Origin: Candidatus Krumholzibacteriota bacterium
GTDB lineage: Bacteria; Krumholzibacteriota; Krumholzibacteriia; JAJRXK01
Direction: 5' to 3'
NCBI GenBank assembly: GCA_029262065.1
Contig: JAJDAC010000044.1
Coordinates: 66,827 to 130,826, forward strand
DNA length: 64,000 nt
Made by a program: the position numbers and the translations under genes. The notes under the pieces were generated by a model. That model saw only the letters and a program-made list of their open reading frames with translations, was not told where the DNA came from and did not search any database. Below, in pieces: positions 19,997 through 37,447 of this stretch (positions within the stretch are counted from its first letter, which is position 1; each line of letters begins with the position of its first letter).

Positions 19997-20578
19997 CTAC
20001 TCACGGCGGCCGTTGTAGATGGTTCCGCCTGAAGCGACGTACTGCTCGAGAACCTTGGCGGCCTCGCTTCGGCTTACCGCGAGTCGAACGTCGATGGCAC
20101 GATCTTCGAGCGTGCTCACCCAGTTCTGGGGCTTGGCCCCCTCGTCCATGCCAATCCTCTCGGCGTCGTCGCCGGTCGCTCCGCACACGAGACGGCGAAC
20201 GCCAGACCATGGCACCGAGCCCAAGCACATGGCGCAGGGTTCGGTGCTGGACACCAGGACCTTGGGGCTCTCTCCCGGCCCACCCAGGTCGTGGCTCCCA
20301 ACAACTTTCTGGGCTACCGAAAGCGCCACCACCTCGGCGTGCGCGGCCGAACACCGCGCCTCGACCACGACGTTTACGCCTGGCGCCACGAGCCGATGGC
20401 TGTCCATGTCAAAAACGGCCGCGCCAAACGGTCCACCGGTTTTCTCCTCGACGTTTCTGCGCGACAACGCCACCACGAGTTCCATCTTGTCCTCGTCGGT
20501 CCGATAGACCGACGAATCACCAGCCAGTTGCTCCTGCAGCCATTTTGGAAGCTCGAGCGAGATTCCCGGGAACGCCAT
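19997..20578 (-). CDS. CDA-fold nucleobase deaminase (cytosine/guanine deaminase-like)
   Basis: Zinc-binding HAE ... PCAMC motifs. Overall resemblance to FCY1-type cytosine deaminase and B. subtilis GuaD. Start taken at the internal Met (MAFPGISLE...); the ORF-track start is 20626. Confidence 0.7.
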   Translation of the reverse strand: MAFPGISLELPKWLQEQLAGDSSVYRTDEDKMELVVALSRRNVEEKTGGPFGAAVFDMDSHRLVAPGVNVVVEARCSAAHAEVVALSVAQKVVGSHDLGGPGESPKVLVSSTEPCAMCLGSVPWSGVRRLVCGATGDDAERIGMDEGAKPQNWVSTLEDRAIDVRLAVSRSEAAKVLEQYVASGGTIYNGRRE

Positions 20579-20646
20579 GACAGACCCCTCCTCTAGAAGT
20601 CGATTCAGCCGTGGATCATACCGCAATCGCTCGTTAGACTCTCTGT

Positions 20647-22734
20647 ATGAGTGAGCTTCGTCCCTATCCGTTCGCCGCCCTGATCACCCGCATGTTCGGG
20701 GAACTGGAAGCGTACGATCGGATCTTCGACCTACCTGCACGCAAGTTCTTCCTGGGTAGTGAATCGCACGACCTCTCGGTCCGATTCCACGACCAGGTAG
20801 CTTCCAGTCCCCTGGGCCCCGCCGCGGGACCGCAGTCGCAGATGGCCCAGAACATCGTGTTGTCCTGGCTGGGCGGTTGCCGGATTCTCGAGCTCAAGAC
20901 CGTGCAGATTCTCGACGAGCTGGAAATTCCGCGCCCCTGCATCGATATGCAGACCGTGGGGTTCAACGTTGAATGGTCGCAGGAATTGAAGCTCGAACAG
21001 TCCCTGGAGGAATACGTCAAGGGCGCGATGCTCGTGGAGATGCTTCGCGCCAGCGGCAAGCTGGACCTGGCGGCAGACTTTGGCTCGGTCATCTACGACA
21101 TGAGCGTGGGCTATGACCTGGCCGGCATCCAGAACCCGCGGGTGCTGGAGTTCATTCGAGGCATGCAGGACGCCGGCGACTGCATCGAGCACCTGCGAAG
21201 CCAGATCCCCGACGAGTTCGCCCACTTCCGCGACCTCGACTATCCGCGCAAGCTGTCCAACACGCTGACGCTGAGTACATTCCACGGCTGCCCTCCCGAC
21301 GAAATCGAGGGCATCATCGATTTCCTTCTGCGGCAAACGGGGTTGAACTGCATCGTCAAACTCAACCCCACCCTGTTGGGCAAAGATGAGGCGCGTCACC
21401 TGCTGAACGACGCACTGGGGTACGAAGACCTGATCATACCGGACAGCGCATTCGACCAGGACACCACTTGGGAACAGGCTCAGGGGCTGGTGGAGCGACT
21501 GGGCCAGACCGCCGACCAACTCGGACTGGGCTTTGGCGTGAAGTTCACCAATACACTCATCGTGGAAAACCATCGCAGCTTCTTCCCGGCCGAGGAAAAG
21601 CAGATGTATCTGTCGGGGCAGCCGCTGCACGTGCTGGCGATGCACCTGGTCCGCAAGTTCCGTAGGCGCTTTGAAGATCGCTACCCCATCTCGTTCTCGG
21701 CCGGAATCGATCGACCCAACTTCGCCGATGCGGTGGGACTTGGTCTCGTGCCCGTCACCGTGTGCAGCGACCTGCTGAGGCCCGGCGGCTACGGCCGGGC
21801 CGAAAGCTACTTCCGTAACCTGACAAAAAGAATGGATGATTGCGGGGCGGCCGACCTGGACGAATGGATCCTACGGGGATTTGGCAACGCCCCGGCGGCC
21901 CTCGACCGGGCCCTGGCCGAGCACGAAGGTGACACAGAAGACGTTCGGGCCCGGTGCCACCGGGGGCTCGCATCCCCAGGACGAGGCACCCTGGCGAAAG
22001 CGGCGGGGCCCCTGTTCGAATCCTGGCTTTCGCACGCCCGCCTGCTCAACACGGAGAGCTACGTTTCGAGCCTGGCCCACGAACCGCGCTATGCGCAAGC
22101 CGGCAACGTCAAGGTTCCCCGCAAGATCGGCAGCCATCTGGAGTTGTTCGACTGCATCACCTGCGACAAGTGCGTTCCGGTTTGTCCCAATGACGCCAAC
22201 TTCACTTTCACGGTGCCGGCGACGCAGATACCAGTTACGCGGCTGCGCCCCTCAGCCAACGGTTGGTCGACCGAGTCCACGGAAACCATCAGCATCGAAA
22301 TGAAGCACCAGATCGCGAACTTCGCCGATTTCTGCAACGAATGCGGAAACTGCGACATCTTCTGCCCCGAAGACGGAGGCCCCTACGTGGTGAAGCCACG
22401 CTTCTTCGGCTCACTGGCCGACTGGAACAAGTTTGCTGTTCTCGACGGATTCTTTTTGGAGCAAACGTCCCAGGGTGACACGATCCACGGGCGGTTCGAA
22501 GGGTCTGGGTATTACCTGGAGCGCCGCGGCTCACTTGCCAGCCGATACTCTGGGCCGGGATTCGTGGTGCAGCTGGACTCGACAAGCCGCGAACCAGAGG
22601 TCGAGGCGTTCGAGCCGGCCGATGCCATCGACGGCACGGTCGACCTTACCTACCTCACCATTCTGGAGTTGGTCCGTGACGCCGTGTGGCATTCGGATGA
22701 AATCAACTATCTGAGCGCTCTGTACCGAACCTAG
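20647..22734 (+). CDS. YgfK-like oxidoreductase (TIGR03315 'putative selenate reductase subunit' family): DHOD/DPD-like barrel plus two 4Fe-4S ferredoxin motifs; the central GltD-like flavin domain is absent
   Basis: N-terminus SSPLGPAAGPQSQMAQNIVLSWLGGCRILELKTVQILDELEIPRPCID...STFHGCPPDEIEGII...VKLNPTLLG...GFGVKFTNTL closely follows E. coli YgfK. C-terminal CITCDKCVPVCPNDAN and FCNECGNCDIFCPEDGGPY. Only 695 aa versus ~1030 for YgfK. Confidence 0.65.
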   Translation: MSELRPYPFAALITRMFGELEAYDRIFDLPARKFFLGSESHDLSVRFHDQVASSPLGPAAGPQSQMAQNIVLSWLGGCRILELKTVQILDELEIPRPCIDMQTVGFNVEWSQELKLEQSLEEYVKGAMLVEMLRASGKLDLAADFGSVIYDMSVGYDLAGIQNPRVLEFIRGMQDAGDCIEHLRSQIPDEFAHFRDLDYPRKLSNTLTLSTFHGCPPDEIEGIIDFLLRQTGLNCIVKLNPTLLGKDEARHLLNDALGYEDLIIPDSAFDQDTTWEQAQGLVERLGQTADQLGLGFGVKFTNTLIVENHRSFFPAEEKQMYLSGQPLHVLAMHLVRKFRRRFEDRYPISFSAGIDRPNFADAVGLGLVPVTVCSDLLRPGGYGRAESYFRNLTKRMDDCGAADLDEWILRGFGNAPAALDRALAEHEGDTEDVRARCHRGLASPGRGTLAKAAGPLFESWLSHARLLNTESYVSSLAHEPRYAQAGNVKVPRKIGSHLELFDCITCDKCVPVCPNDANFTFTVPATQIPVTRLRPSANGWSTESTETISIEMKHQIANFADFCNECGNCDIFCPEDGGPYVVKPRFFGSLADWNKFAVLDGFFLEQTSQGDTIHGRFEGSGYYLERRGSLASRYSGPGFVVQLDSTSREPEVEAFEPADAIDGTVDLTYLTILELVRDAVWHSDEINYLSALYRT

Positions 22735-36092: not shown

Positions 36093-36695
36093 CTAGTCCA
36101 AAAGAGGGCCCAGTCGCTTCAGGTCTTCAGGAGTATCTACATCGCAAAACACGCGGGCGTCTGGCACGTGAACCGTGCGCGTGGTTTCACGAACGGCATC
36201 GAGCACCTGGGTACCCTTGGCACCATCGTCGAGTGCCAGGAAGTTCGCGAACAACTCGCGGGGAATGATCTTCGGGTGGTAGTGTCGACCATTGTTTTCC
36301 GAAACAACCACCGAATGGGTCTCGTCGAAGACGCGTATCAGATCATCGATCAGTCCAGATGGCACCAGCGGCATATCCGCCAGGAACATCATGGCACCGT
36401 CCACCCCAGGCGGCAGTTCCCGCAGCCCGGCCTTCACCGAAGACATCTGCCCCCGCTGAGCTCGCTGGTTTTCCACAAACCGAACTCGGCGATCGGCCTC
36501 CGGCAACAATGGAGTGACGATGTCTACGATGCTTCGTTGGGACGGTGCGACGATCACGAGAATCGACGTCAGTGACGATGCGAGACACGCACGCAGACTG
36601 TAATAGATGAGAGGCTTCCCACCGACTTCGTGCAACCGCTTGTCAGTACCGAAGCGCTCGCTGCTGCCCGCGGCCAAGAGGATTCCGTGAACCAT
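36093..36695 (-). CDS. mocA: molybdenum cofactor cytidylyl/guanylyl-transferase (MocA/MobA-like NTP transferase)
   Basis: ILLAAGSSERFGTDK N-terminal nucleotidyltransferase signature. 200 aa. Confidence 0.75.
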   Translation of the reverse strand: MVHGILLAAGSSERFGTDKRLHEVGGKPLIYYSLRACLASSLTSILVIVAPSQRSIVDIVTPLLPEADRRVRFVENQRAQRGQMSSVKAGLRELPPGVDGAMMFLADMPLVPSGLIDDLIRVFDETHSVVVSENNGRHYHPKIIPRELFANFLALDDGAKGTQVLDAVRETTRTVHVPDARVFCDVDTPEDLKRLGPLLD

Positions 36696-36718
36696 TGCCG
36701 TTGCGACCTCTAATCATG

Positions 36719-37447
36719 TCAGGCCGTGTAGCGGTCGTTGAACCAAGGTTCGGCCGAGTTGGAATACCCCCGGGTCTCCCAGAATCCGGGGTGATCCTCC
36801 GCAAGGAATTCGATGCGACGGATCCACTTGGCGCCCTTCCAAGCGTACAGCTTCGGAGTGATCATGCGCAGCGGACCACCGTGCTCGCGCGGTAGCGGCT
36901 GACCTTCCCATTGGTGAACCAATAGAACATCGTCTTCCATGGCTCGGTCGAGCGGCAGATTGGTGGTATAGGGTACGTCGTGCCGGGGCTCGCTGTCGTA
37001 GCCCGTACAAAGAACGAAGCGGGCGGCTTCCAGGGGCACTGCGCGAGCGGCAATCTCGGAGAAACGAACCCCCGCCCAGCGATTGTCCATGCGACTCCAG
37101 GTGGTCACGCAATGGAAATCGCTTACATCTTCGACCTGGGGAAGCGCCAGGAGTTCGGACCATTTCAAGGTGAAGGGATTTTCCACTTCCCCTCCGACCT
37201 CAAGCTCCCACTTGTCCAAGGGGATCTCCGGAACGTGTCCCAGATCCAGCACGGGCCAACGATCAACTTGGTGTTGCCCCACGGGAAGCGTTGGCATTCC
37301 GTGGCGGTTGGTCTCGCCGCTTCCCTCAGGTGACTTGCCCGCGAAACGAACGTCCACCGTTTGGGGTTCACGCTGACGCATGCGCTCGATGAAGCGCATG
37401 CGCTTGGCGACCATGGCGTCGTGGTGTTCGGCATCGGCGTGCGACAC
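36719..37447 (-). CDS. sulfite-oxidase-fold molybdopterin-dependent oxidoreductase (single Mo domain, YuiH/YedY-like)
   Basis: SUOX-fold signature DFHCVTTWS and ...LYAWKGAKWI.... 242 aa. GTG start abutting the stop of the upstream LTD gene. Confidence 0.75.
   Translation of the reverse strand: MSHADAEHHDAMVAKRMRFIERMRQREPQTVDVRFAGKSPEGSGETNRHGMPTLPVGQHQVDRWPVLDLGHVPEIPLDKWELEVGGEVENPFTLKWSELLALPQVEDVSDFHCVTTWSRMDNRWAGVRFSEIAARAVPLEAARFVLCTGYDSEPRHDVPYTTNLPLDRAMEDDVLLVHQWEGQPLPREHGGPLRMITPKLYAWKGAKWIRRIEFLAEDHPGFWETRGYSNSAEPWFNDRYTA

Follow-up and report, generated by a model that had tools for sequence, protein, structure and literature searches.

A candidate variant of the reductive urate pathway with a paired set of PLP enzymes in a Krumholzibacteriota gene cluster

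Which heterocycle does a 17-kb block of catabolic genes in a Candidatus Krumholzibacteriota bacterium degrade, and by which route? The block lies at positions 19997-37447 of a 64,000-nucleotide stretch of contig JAJDAC010000044.1 (hereafter the window, G+C ~62%) and combines a nucleobase deaminase, a YgfK-like reductase, an SsnA-like amidohydrolase, molybdenum (Mo) hydroxylases, two CN-hydrolases (CN1 and CN2) and two fold-type II pyridoxal phosphate (PLP) enzymes, which we call PALP1 and PALP2. Our analysis makes it probable that this cluster encodes an oxygen-independent degradation of purines and represents a variant of the reductive urate (2,8-dioxopurine) pathway. While the overall chemistry of this pathway is already known, the new elements are a short form of YgfK, CN-hydrolases as decarbamoylases, the lack of HyuA, and PALP2/PALP1 instead of YgeX. 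All functional statements are based on homology and synteny; for the upstream steps homology is joined by conserved gene order, while the downstream steps are proposed more tentatively.

The E. coli ygf/yge counterpart, which the initial annotation had described as only partly understood, was solved and reconstituted in 2025 (Li et al., Life Metab., PMC12507026; Liu et al., bioRxiv 10.1101/2025.04.24.650524), and most of the chemistry of the cluster has thereby become predictable. According to both studies, 2,8-dioxopurine ("yanthine") arises from the reduction of urate, catalysed in E. coli by XdhD-YgfM and in Clostridium by XdhAC (DOPDH), which depends on selenium and lacks FAD; the product is dearomatised by YgfK (DOPOR) or the PydA-like UacX. 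SsnA then opens the pyrimidine ring to give ureidomethylhydantoin, HyuA opens the hydantoin to 2,3-diureidopropionate, the two ureido groups are removed by YgeW (with YqeA) or UacY, and by YgeY, and YgeX converts 2,3-diaminopropionate (DAP) into pyruvate and ammonia; in vitro, YgfK and SsnA reduce and open 2,8-dioxopurine (PMC12507026; 10.1101/2025.04.24.650524). The FAD-less reductases UacX and clostridial PydA, with ferredoxin as presumed donor, have already been described, as has a Chloroflexota variant with a luciferase-family, presumably F420-dependent reductase (PMC12507026). The sequence of events first proposed from the gene set, i.e. hydroxylation, reduction, ring opening, decarbamoylation and PLP-dependent elimination, fits this experimentally established pathway (PMC12507026); the key step had been missed, namely that the fused Mo enzyme would reductively dehydroxylate urate at position 6 and so yield 2,8-dioxopurine. 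A literature search on the PALP family, on albizziin/ureidoalanine lyases and on F420-linked urate degradation returned nothing beyond these two papers.

Gene families were assigned by profile hidden Markov model (HMM) searches against Pfam and NCBIfam, overlaps were determined in a start-codon survey, and the proteins of the E. coli cluster were compared with the complete window by tblastn. The open reading frame (ORF) listing and the profile searches reproduced all 14 family assignments and coordinates of the initial annotation, and its designation of the locus as an N-heterocycle catabolic cluster of the ygfK-ssnA-xdh type was borne out by the same models. The features, including the subunits of a xanthine dehydrogenase (XDH)-family hydroxylase, are as follows:

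19997-20578, minus strand: predicted CDA-fold guanine deaminase, NE0047 type (PF00383, 50 bits)
20647-22734, plus strand: short YgfK (TIGR03315 positions 4-398 of 1012, 407 bits)
22731-23654, minus strand: CN-hydrolase 1, CN1 (PF00795, 142 bits)
23651-25012, minus strand: PALP1, ThrC-like fold-II PLP enzyme, 453 aa (PF00291, 114 bits)
24999-26498, minus strand: PALP2, CysK/CBS-like fold-II PLP enzyme, 499 aa (PF00291, 27.7 bits, under cut-off)
26495-27724, minus strand: SsnA-like amidohydrolase (NF005540 SsnA, 295 bits)
27721-30387, minus strand: fused 2Fe-2S and molybdopterin enzyme, FAD-less (TIGR03311, 912 bits; Fer2, Fer2_2, Ald_Xan_dh_C hammerhead, MoCoBD_1/2)
30384-31265, minus strand: CN-hydrolase 2, CN2 (PF00795, 207 bits)
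31262-32143, minus strand: FAD-binding subunit of the XDH-family hydroxylase (PF00941, PF03450; NF043083 XdhB)
32140-32619, minus strand: 2Fe-2S subunit of the XDH-family hydroxylase (PF01799, PF00111; PucE and XdhC_XDHase models)
32616-34994, minus strand: molybdopterin subunit of the XDH-family hydroxylase, operon gene 1 (MoCoBD_1/2, hammerhead; PucD)
34995-35098, no strand: divergent intergenic region of 104 bp between operon and xdhC, presumed promoter region (read from the sequence)
35099-36055, plus strand: XdhC-family chaperone for Mo-cofactor insertion (PF13478, PF02625; NF045664, 136 bits, under cut-off)
36093-36695, minus strand: MocA-like molybdenum cofactor cytidylyltransferase (PF12804; TIGR03310, 124 bits vs cut-off 186)
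36719-37447, minus strand: SUOX-fold (MsrP-like) molybdoenzyme, 242 aa (PF00174, Oxidored_molyb, 154 bits)

Nine minus-strand genes running from 34994 to 22731 are chained by seven 4-nt overlaps (ATGA/GTGA) and one 14-nt overlap (PALP2/PALP1), in the order XDH Mo, 2Fe-2S and FAD subunits, CN2, fused 2Fe-2S/Mo enzyme, SsnA-like enzyme, PALP2, PALP1 and CN1. The operon postulated earlier from such overlaps thus stands, whereas its proposed start, a TTG at 35009, is replaced by the more likely ATG at 34994, which has GGGAG upstream. The GTG start of PALP1 at 25012 was confirmed by an identical 453-aa protein in a public collection. The plus-strand YgfK-like gene converges on the operon end, and both stop codons share one CTAG. 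Inside the nine-gene chain no excess of terminator-like or promoter-like signals was found, the sigma-70/terminator scan giving fewer sites than shuffled sequence. The genes leave just one non-coding stretch of some size, the 104 bp between the divergent first operon gene and xdhC, in which neither a sigma-70 consensus nor an Rfam match was detected.

Upstream enzymes and the predicted substrate

The route would begin with the conversion of guanine to xanthine by the deaminase, which matches PDB 2G84 of the NE0047 family over residues 9-191 (E 1.5e-47) and the B. subtilis guanine deaminase 1WKQ (E 2e-13) and keeps the zinc motifs HAE and PCxxC. We take NE0047 (2G84) to be a guanine deaminase; the PDB title itself says just CDA zinc-binding region. 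The three-subunit hydroxylase would subsequently oxidise xanthine (and hypoxanthine) to urate with its Mo, 2Fe-2S and FAD centres. All its subunits are present and adjacent, and their best models were PucD (555 bits, cut-off 784), PucE (164, cut-off 254) and XdhB (196, cut-off 310), with the 2Fe-2S subunit also reaching 159 bits, under cut-off, against the XdhC_XDHase model. The Mo subunit shares 30% identity with E. coli XdhA and carries the motif GGGFGGKE. Since the cluster holds an NE0047-type guanine deaminase together with two purine-type Mo hydroxylases, its substrate is predicted to be a purine, and a pyrimidine appears unlikely; of the substrates initially considered, xanthine or urate is therefore retained and a pyrimidine is not.

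Urate would next undergo reductive dehydroxylation at C6 to 2,8-dioxopurine by the fused 2Fe-2S/Mo enzyme. The fusion had been recognised at the outset, and its assignment as XdhD-like has to be revised: the protein exceeds the cut-off of TIGR03311 (912 vs 830 bits) and scores only 231 bits against the XdhD family TIGR03313. Together with the missing FAD domain, these values point to the architecture of clostridial XdhAC rather than that of E. coli XdhD, and we propose the enzyme as a putative, DOPDH-like urate reductase. It keeps a GGAFGGKE motif, and the Mo proteins of the cluster are ~27-30% identical to E. coli XdhA/XdhD; its regiospecificity is unreadable from sequence. One operon thus holds an XDH and a DOPDH-like enzyme with a single FAD subunit, and internal recycling of electrons between the two is conceivable because the path xanthine → urate → 2,8-dioxopurine is redox-neutral overall. 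XdhC and MocA are expected maturation factors for Mo enzymes of the MCD type and would mature both Mo enzymes here; the XdhC-family protein also shows weak similarity to YqeB.

Dearomatisation of 2,8-dioxopurine is assigned to the short YgfK. Its residues 4-392 align with residues 5-405 of E. coli YgfK at 39% identity and its residues 505-605 with YgfK 904-979 at 33%; it carries two CxxCxxCxxxC motifs (at 503 and 563) and a predicted C-terminal 2x[4Fe-4S] domain. The intervening module of the E. coli protein within 453-839, consisting of Fer4_20 (453-532) and Pyr_redox_2 (552-839), is missing, as it is from the homologue at a related locus (L018). The absence of this NADPH/FAD module explains why the full-length equivalog cut-off of TIGR03315 is missed. 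The short form is no truncation artefact: when 1.84 billion representatives were searched, lengths of 620-790 aa prevailed among the 75 top hits, and forms of 1050-1220 aa scored lower. Lacking the module, the enzyme would need an external electron carrier such as ferredoxin, and we propose it as a putative 2,8-dioxopurine reductase with such a donor.

The reduced ring would then be opened by the SsnA-like amidohydrolase, whose gene overlaps that of the fused Mo enzyme by 4 nt. It reached 295 bits against NF005540 and 259 bits against TIGR03314 (cut-offs 444 and 455), with the next family at 107 bits, aligns over its full length with E. coli SsnA at 31% identity, and keeps the HxH motif as NSHTH.

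CN-hydrolases and the PALP pair

Beyond the first ring opening the cluster departs from all described versions of the pathway. ygeW, ygeY and yqeA/carbamate kinase are absent, as the initial annotation had stated, and tblastn shows that hyuA and ygeX are likewise absent from the whole 64-kb window; profile searches and tblastn also found no OTCase (ornithine carbamoyltransferase), carbamate kinase, M20 or D-aminoacylase homologue in the cluster. The second ring might be opened by a hydantoinase encoded elsewhere in the genome, or by the SsnA-type enzyme itself, which may perform both hydrolyses since they occur at the same carbon (C4).

For the removal of both ureido groups of 2,3-diureidopropionate, CN1 and CN2 are natural candidates, and they would replace YgeW/YqeA (or UacY) and YgeY. 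The two are paralogues with 39% identity, and their nearest solved relatives, N-carbamoylputrescine amidohydrolase and animal and plant beta-ureidopropionases, are all decarbamoylases. CN1 matches PDB 5H8I (E 2e-31) and 2VHH/6FTQ (E ~1e-30) and keeps the triad E63-K147-C191; CN2 matches 5H8I (E 1e-59) and the beta-ureidopropionases 2VHH, 8PT4 and 6FTQ (E 1e-54 to 1e-57), with the triad E52-K134-C164. With hydrolases in these places and no carbamate kinase encoded, no carbamoyl phosphate would be gained and no ATP recovered from it.

The final step, from DAP or a monoureido intermediate to pyruvate and ammonia, would fall to PALP2 and PALP1, with PALP1 in the place of YgeX. Although the two PLP enzymes had been regarded as additions to the pathway, they turned out to form a conserved module that stands where YgeX stands. 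Both keep the PLP lysine, the Asn loop and the Gly loop, and no NCBIfam model reached its cut-off for either. The PALP1 profile aligned best with threonine synthase (Aquifex ThrC 2ZSJ, E 2.6e-14), K144 falling on the PLP lysine, and in a Foldseek search its predicted structure (pLDDT 84.8) was about equally close to ThrC, threonine deaminase, serine racemase and DAP ammonia-lyase, which singles out no specific reaction. An N-terminal Cys3His motif (C14/C17/C31/H42) is invariant.

PALP2 has more than 8000 database homologues at ~60-65% identity, labelled "cysteine synthase" in their sources, which occur in Myxococcota, Acidobacteriota, Actinomycetota, Chloroflexota, Armatimonadota, Gemmatimonadota, Proteobacteria and Eiseniibacteriota and in at least 600 species genomes. 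Invariant in the family are K114, PSTGNY, SATGSAGT and HNIQGIGDKH, and in the profile alignment with CysK the Asn loop, the Gly loop, the IQGIG motif and the N1 serine region correspond. The predicted structure (pLDDT 87.5) has O-acetylserine sulfhydrylase (OASS), beta-cyanoalanine synthase and CBS as best Foldseek matches (TM ~0.8 on the target, 20-26% identity), with extra helical segments of ~90 aa at the N-terminus and ~100 aa at the C-terminus. An assignment of PALP2 as CysK/CysM O-acetylserine sulfhydrylase was rejected, since it reaches just 58 of the 351 bits required and shares just the fold and cofactor motifs. The pair resembles OASS/CBS (PALP2) and threonine synthase/DAP ammonia-lyase (PALP1) in the fold-type II core with its lysine and loops, and differs from them in low identity (14-26%), in the terminal extensions of PALP2, in the Cys3His motif of PALP1, and in its purine-catabolic context.

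PALP2 presumably adds a step that the gut pathway lacks, either a further beta-elimination or beta-replacement or a stereoisomer-specific step. CysK-like chemistry and the pairing with a partner of the DAP-lyase type led us to two hypotheses: a beta-elimination or beta-replacement on a beta-N-substituted alanine such as albizziin, or a split of D- and L-forms between PALP2 and its partner. Stereochemistry has been named as an open question of the pathway in a commentary (PMC12990295). The cysteate racemase/lyase pair was considered as a model for the PALP pair and set aside as a loose analogy, that racemase being PLP-independent.

Conservation across phyla and weighing of the alternatives

Conservation was judged on 83 PALP2-centred loci from many phyla with flanks of up to 10 kb, in which genes were called by a GC3-based method and identified from a best-hit table. 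Clustering of stop-to-stop ORFs was dropped as it was confounded by conserved antisense ORFs in high-GC genomes. A scan of metagenomes with PALP1 for close relatives gave two distant, short matches only; conservation was therefore assessed across phyla and not within the lineage. A TIGR03311-like fused Mo enzyme (DOPDH-like) or SsnA lies within 10 kb of PALP2 at 37 of the 83 loci. In these purine contexts, homologues of the fused Mo enzyme (60-72% identical) adjoin SsnA at 31 of the 37 loci, SsnA homologues (50-65% identical) are in many loci flanked by the fused Mo enzyme on one side and PALP2 on the other, and the gene order fused Mo-SsnA-PALP2-PALP1 is seen again in Acidobacteriota, Myxococcota, Gemmatimonadota and Betaproteobacteria. 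Unsupervised clustering revealed no further family that co-occurs with PALP2 as often as those of the purine pathway. The cluster is thus conserved as a unit in its core, and an initial concern that it might not be is answered.

Gene families were counted at the 24 purine-context loci whose flanks extended 8 kb or more in both directions. PALP1 was present at 23, DOPDH-like enzymes and SsnA at 21 each, any reductase at 18, a YgeW-like OTCase at 17 and XDH subunits at 13, followed by carbamate kinase (9), M20 peptidases (6), HyuA (5), YgeX (2) and a CN-hydrolase (1). Some decarbamoylase (OTCase, M20 or CN-hydrolase) was found at 19 loci, and the reductases, in non-exclusive counts, comprised YgfK (2), short YgfK (3), a UacX-like protein with DHO_dh and Fer4 domains (5) and luciferase-like proteins (8). 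The core is conserved, while decarbamoylases and reductases vary in a modular way. Most similar to the window is a locus from Vicinamibacteria (L054), which encodes the fused Mo enzyme (69% identity), SsnA (56%), PALP2 (58%), PALP1 (44%), CN1 (58%) and short YgfK (57%), and a Polyangia locus (L035) shows the order SsnA-PALP2-PALP1-CN1; in both, CN1 homologues with 56-58% identity come after PALP1. At three further loci (L018, L028, L059) the conserved block is combined with a short YgfK. A Rubrivivax locus (L069) carries ygeW, ygeY and yqeA that are 75-82% identical to those of E. coli, together with ygfK and hyuA, and here PALP2 and PALP1 replace ygeX. In Chloroflexia and Myxococcales (L013, L019, L039, L055) a 400-aa protein with DHO_dh and 4Fe-4S domains, similar to UacX and clostridial PydA, lies beside SsnA and the fused Mo enzyme; the same PALP2-PALP1 block therefore combines with all three published reductase types as well as with the short YgfK.

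The neighbourhood survey of Li et al. (PMC12507026) scored every PF00291 neighbour as "YgeX". When the partner of PALP2 was resolved at the 69 loci that extend 2.5 kb or more downstream of it, 50 had PALP1 only, 7 a YgeX-like protein only, 1 both and 11 neither (Fisher p 2e-4). Owing to this near mutual exclusion, PALP1 is likely a functional stand-in for YgeX, as an analogue rather than an orthologue.

Compared with the urate cluster of E. coli (PMC12507026), the Krumholzibacteriota cluster shares the logic and the upstream enzyme families, with a Mo enzyme proposed to form 2,8-dioxopurine, a YgfK-family reductase, SsnA, XDH-like genes nearby, a predicted guanine deaminase and MocA. It differs in a TIGR03311-type Mo enzyme instead of XdhD/YgfM, a YgfK without Fer4_20 and Pyr_redox_2, two CN-hydrolases and PALP2/PALP1 instead of HyuA, YgeW, YqeA, YgeY and YgeX, a CDA-fold guanine deaminase instead of the amidohydrolase GuaD, and the lack of a transporter, a sigma-54 regulator and yqeB/yqeC. 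With the pathway of C. sporogenes and C. difficile (10.1101/2025.04.24.650524; PMC12507026) it has in common a FAD-less fused Fe-S/Mo-cofactor enzyme that has no NAD(P)H module of its own, a FAD-less reductase (UacX there) implying a ferredoxin-type donor, and the predicted hydrolytic mode of ureido removal (UacY there). Unlike the clostridial systems, it uses a short YgfK rather than a PydA-like DHO_dh protein and CN-hydrolases rather than a D-aminoacylase-like enzyme and an M20 peptidase, has neither HyuA nor YgeX, shows no selenium-trait genes in the window, and probably belongs to an environmental FCB-group bacterium rather than a gut Firmicute. The F420/luciferase variant of Chloroflexota and Actinomycetota (PMC12507026, Fig. 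3) also contains the PALP2-PALP1 pair with a TIGR03311-like Mo enzyme and SsnA block, as seen in the luciferase-type clusters L003, L008, L009, L011, L025, L032 and L042; in these clusters the reductase is luciferase-like, and one or two OTCase-like carbamoyltransferases are accompanied by a carbamate kinase, in contrast to the short YgfK, CN-hydrolases and missing kinase of the window.

PALP2 was also encountered in other surroundings. At three proteobacterial loci (L060; L072 from Xanthobacter sp. VNH20; L076) it lies within an F420-biosynthesis cluster, with FbiC (a fused CofG/H radical-SAM protein), CofE, an F420-dependent NADP oxidoreductase and a luciferase-like protein as neighbours; genes for XDH subunits, a YgeX-like lyase, an M20 peptidase and both subunits of a CoA-transferase are also found there. 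In Acidimicrobiia (Ilumatobacteraceae) its surroundings are housekeeping genes (clpP, comM, dprA, xerC, rpsB), and a fold-type III PLP protein (Ala_racemase_N and D-ser_dehydrat) is encoded upstream of PALP2-PALP1 on the opposite strand at L083 (4564-5610) and four more Acidimicrobiia loci. At L005, where the cluster is reduced to XDH, the fused Mo enzyme, SsnA, PALP2 and PALP1, the PALP1 homologue is a 633-aa fusion with a C-terminal 4HBT_2 thioesterase domain (11497-13398). Given these F420, housekeeping and thioesterase-fusion contexts, the role of PALP2 may be broader than purine catabolism. In the actinobacterial loci L008/L011, two NMT1/THI5-like substrate-binding proteins and an ABC ATPase flank the pathway genes (422-2714 and 13606-14247), a possible uptake system that is absent from the cluster of the window.

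Several observations weigh against the assignment to the reductive urate pathway. At 46 of the 83 PALP2 loci no purine genes lie within 10 kb, and some of these are the housekeeping contexts. None of the SsnA-like and YgfK-like proteins, XDH subunits, XdhC and MocA reaches its equivalog cut-off in NCBIfam. Characterised DOPDH needs selenium, and none of selD, yqeB and yqeC is found in the 64-kb window. Glu606 of XdhD could not serve as a marker of regiospecificity, as it belongs to an insertion that only the XdhD family has and is not alignable to the TIGR03311-type enzyme. One step is left without a candidate, HyuA/hydantoinase giving no tblastn, Pfam or NCBIfam match in the window, and PALP1 and PALP2 were rejected as YgeX orthologues, with no BLAST match and hhalign probabilities of 29% and 2%, respectively. 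Finally, profile searches found no urate/xanthine transporter or regulator in the cluster, and an Rfam scan of 17-39 kb no riboswitch.

These gaps give some room to the idea that a different N-heterocycle is degraded, such as a pterin, a nicotinate-like compound, a methylxanthine, isoguanine or 8-oxoguanine, and that the likeness to the urate pathway holds at family level only. The two Mo hydroxylases would then act on this other ring, and its reduction and opening would fall to the YgfK-like and SsnA-like proteins. Among the catalytic proteins all except the fused Mo enzyme fall below equivalog cut-offs, identity to the E. coli counterparts is just 31% for SsnA and ~27-30% for the Mo proteins, HyuA, YgeW, YgeY and YgeX are missing, and the specificity of Mo hydroxylases is considered unreadable from sequence (PMC12990295). 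We nevertheless judge this explanation unlikely, as the deaminase belongs to the NE0047 guanine deaminase family, the fused Mo enzyme passes TIGR03311, the motif GG(G/A)FGGKE is present in both Mo subunits, and related loci pair the Mo-SsnA-PALP2-PALP1 block with proteins of the YgeW, YgeY, YqeA, HyuA and YgfK types that are up to 82% identical to those of E. coli.

Quite improbable is a reductive pyrimidine pathway of the Pyd type (PydA/PreTA, PydB, PydC), in which the deaminase would convert cytosine to uracil and the YgfK-like, SsnA-like and CN-hydrolase proteins would act as dihydropyrimidine dehydrogenase, dihydropyrimidinase and beta-ureidopropionase. Such a pathway likewise proceeds in three steps through a reductase, a cyclic amidohydrolase and a CN-hydrolase, beta-ureidopropionases are the nearest relatives of CN1 and CN2, SsnA has been described as PydB-related, the deaminase has the CDA fold, and the succession of an FMN domain and C-terminal 4Fe-4S clusters in the short YgfK resembles PreA. 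Yet the initial annotation had named a plain PreA/PreT pair as the contrary case to a YgfK-like protein, and YgfK proved the best family, with no match to PF01180 (DHO_dh); no dihydropyrimidinase or hydantoinase model matches either, the best families being YgfK and SsnA, whose characterised substrate is 2,8-dioxopurine. In addition, the deaminase matches guanine deaminases, and the pyrimidine route would leave two Mo hydroxylases, XdhC and MocA without a role and has no need of fold-II PLP lyases to produce beta-alanine.

Least credible is a chance mosaic of an aerobic-type XDH purine-salvage unit and an amino-acid unit (PALP2, PALP1, CN-hydrolase), for although PALP2, with or without PALP1, occurs without purine genes within 10 kb at 46 of the 83 loci, e.g. 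beside clpP, dprA and rpsB in Ilumatobacteraceae, here nine genes form one operon through 4- or 14-nt overlaps, the order fused Mo-SsnA-PALP2-PALP1 is found in at least five phyla, and no other family co-occurs with PALP2 as often.

Flanking genes and implications

At the right-hand end of the cluster, the SUOX-fold gene is directly followed by a gene for a 228-aa protein with a weak lamin-tail-domain (LTD) match (together 36719-38134, minus strand). As neither has a homologue at any of the 83 related loci, both were set aside as cluster members and are probably unrelated to the purine genes. On the left, an isocitrate-lyase-family protein of 756 aa (17726-19996, plus strand; PF00463, 405 bits in two stretches, a long ICL2-like form) is encoded convergently to the deaminase and ends right at its stop codon with a 0-nt spacer. 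Elsewhere in the window, five predicted secreted proteins (4134-7388, 15131-17515, 38389-40173, 43025-43624, 43674-45014) end in a FlgD_ig / T9SS type-A sorting domain, one of them carrying a Peptidase_C13 domain. The DXR encoded in the window has its best named hits in Krumholzibacteria (65% identity), and together with the sorting domains this tentatively suggests an environmental MAG of an FCB-group candidate phylum. A giant protein of 2440 aa (45094-52416, minus strand) contains three DUF11 repeats and a CBM96 carbohydrate-binding module, and two paralogous Ser/Thr protein kinases of one similarity cluster are fused to long TPR arrays (11630-14260 and 56275-58899, both plus strand).

The reductive urate pathway was described in 2025 from anaerobes of the gut, and probiotics equipped with it are under development for gout. 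Phyla of soils, sediments and waters would combine the same upstream chemistry with other downstream enzymes, and some of the carrier lineages, e.g. Nocardioides and Xanthobacter, are generally aerobic. As a tentative extension, environmental bacteria might possess a distinct downstream branch built around PALP2 together with PALP1 (or a YgeX-like enzyme), usually without a hydantoinase or YgeY-type peptidase, in which PALP2 would catalyse a reaction absent from E. coli and Clostridium and electrons could be exchanged between XDH and the DOPDH-like enzyme. If this holds, PALP2 would be a candidate for the beta-elimination of urea from albizziin or for the handling of one enantiomer of DAP or albizziin, and the conversion of xanthine to 2,8-dioxopurine without net redox change would amount to a shift of the oxo group from C6 to C8.

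The cluster thereby offers testable candidates, namely a ferredoxin-dependent short YgfK, purely hydrolytic CN-hydrolases that may bear on the disputed order of ureido cleavage, and the widespread PALP2. Establishing the function of PALP2 would annotate thousands of proteins now called "cysteine synthase" and could clarify the stereochemistry of the pathway.

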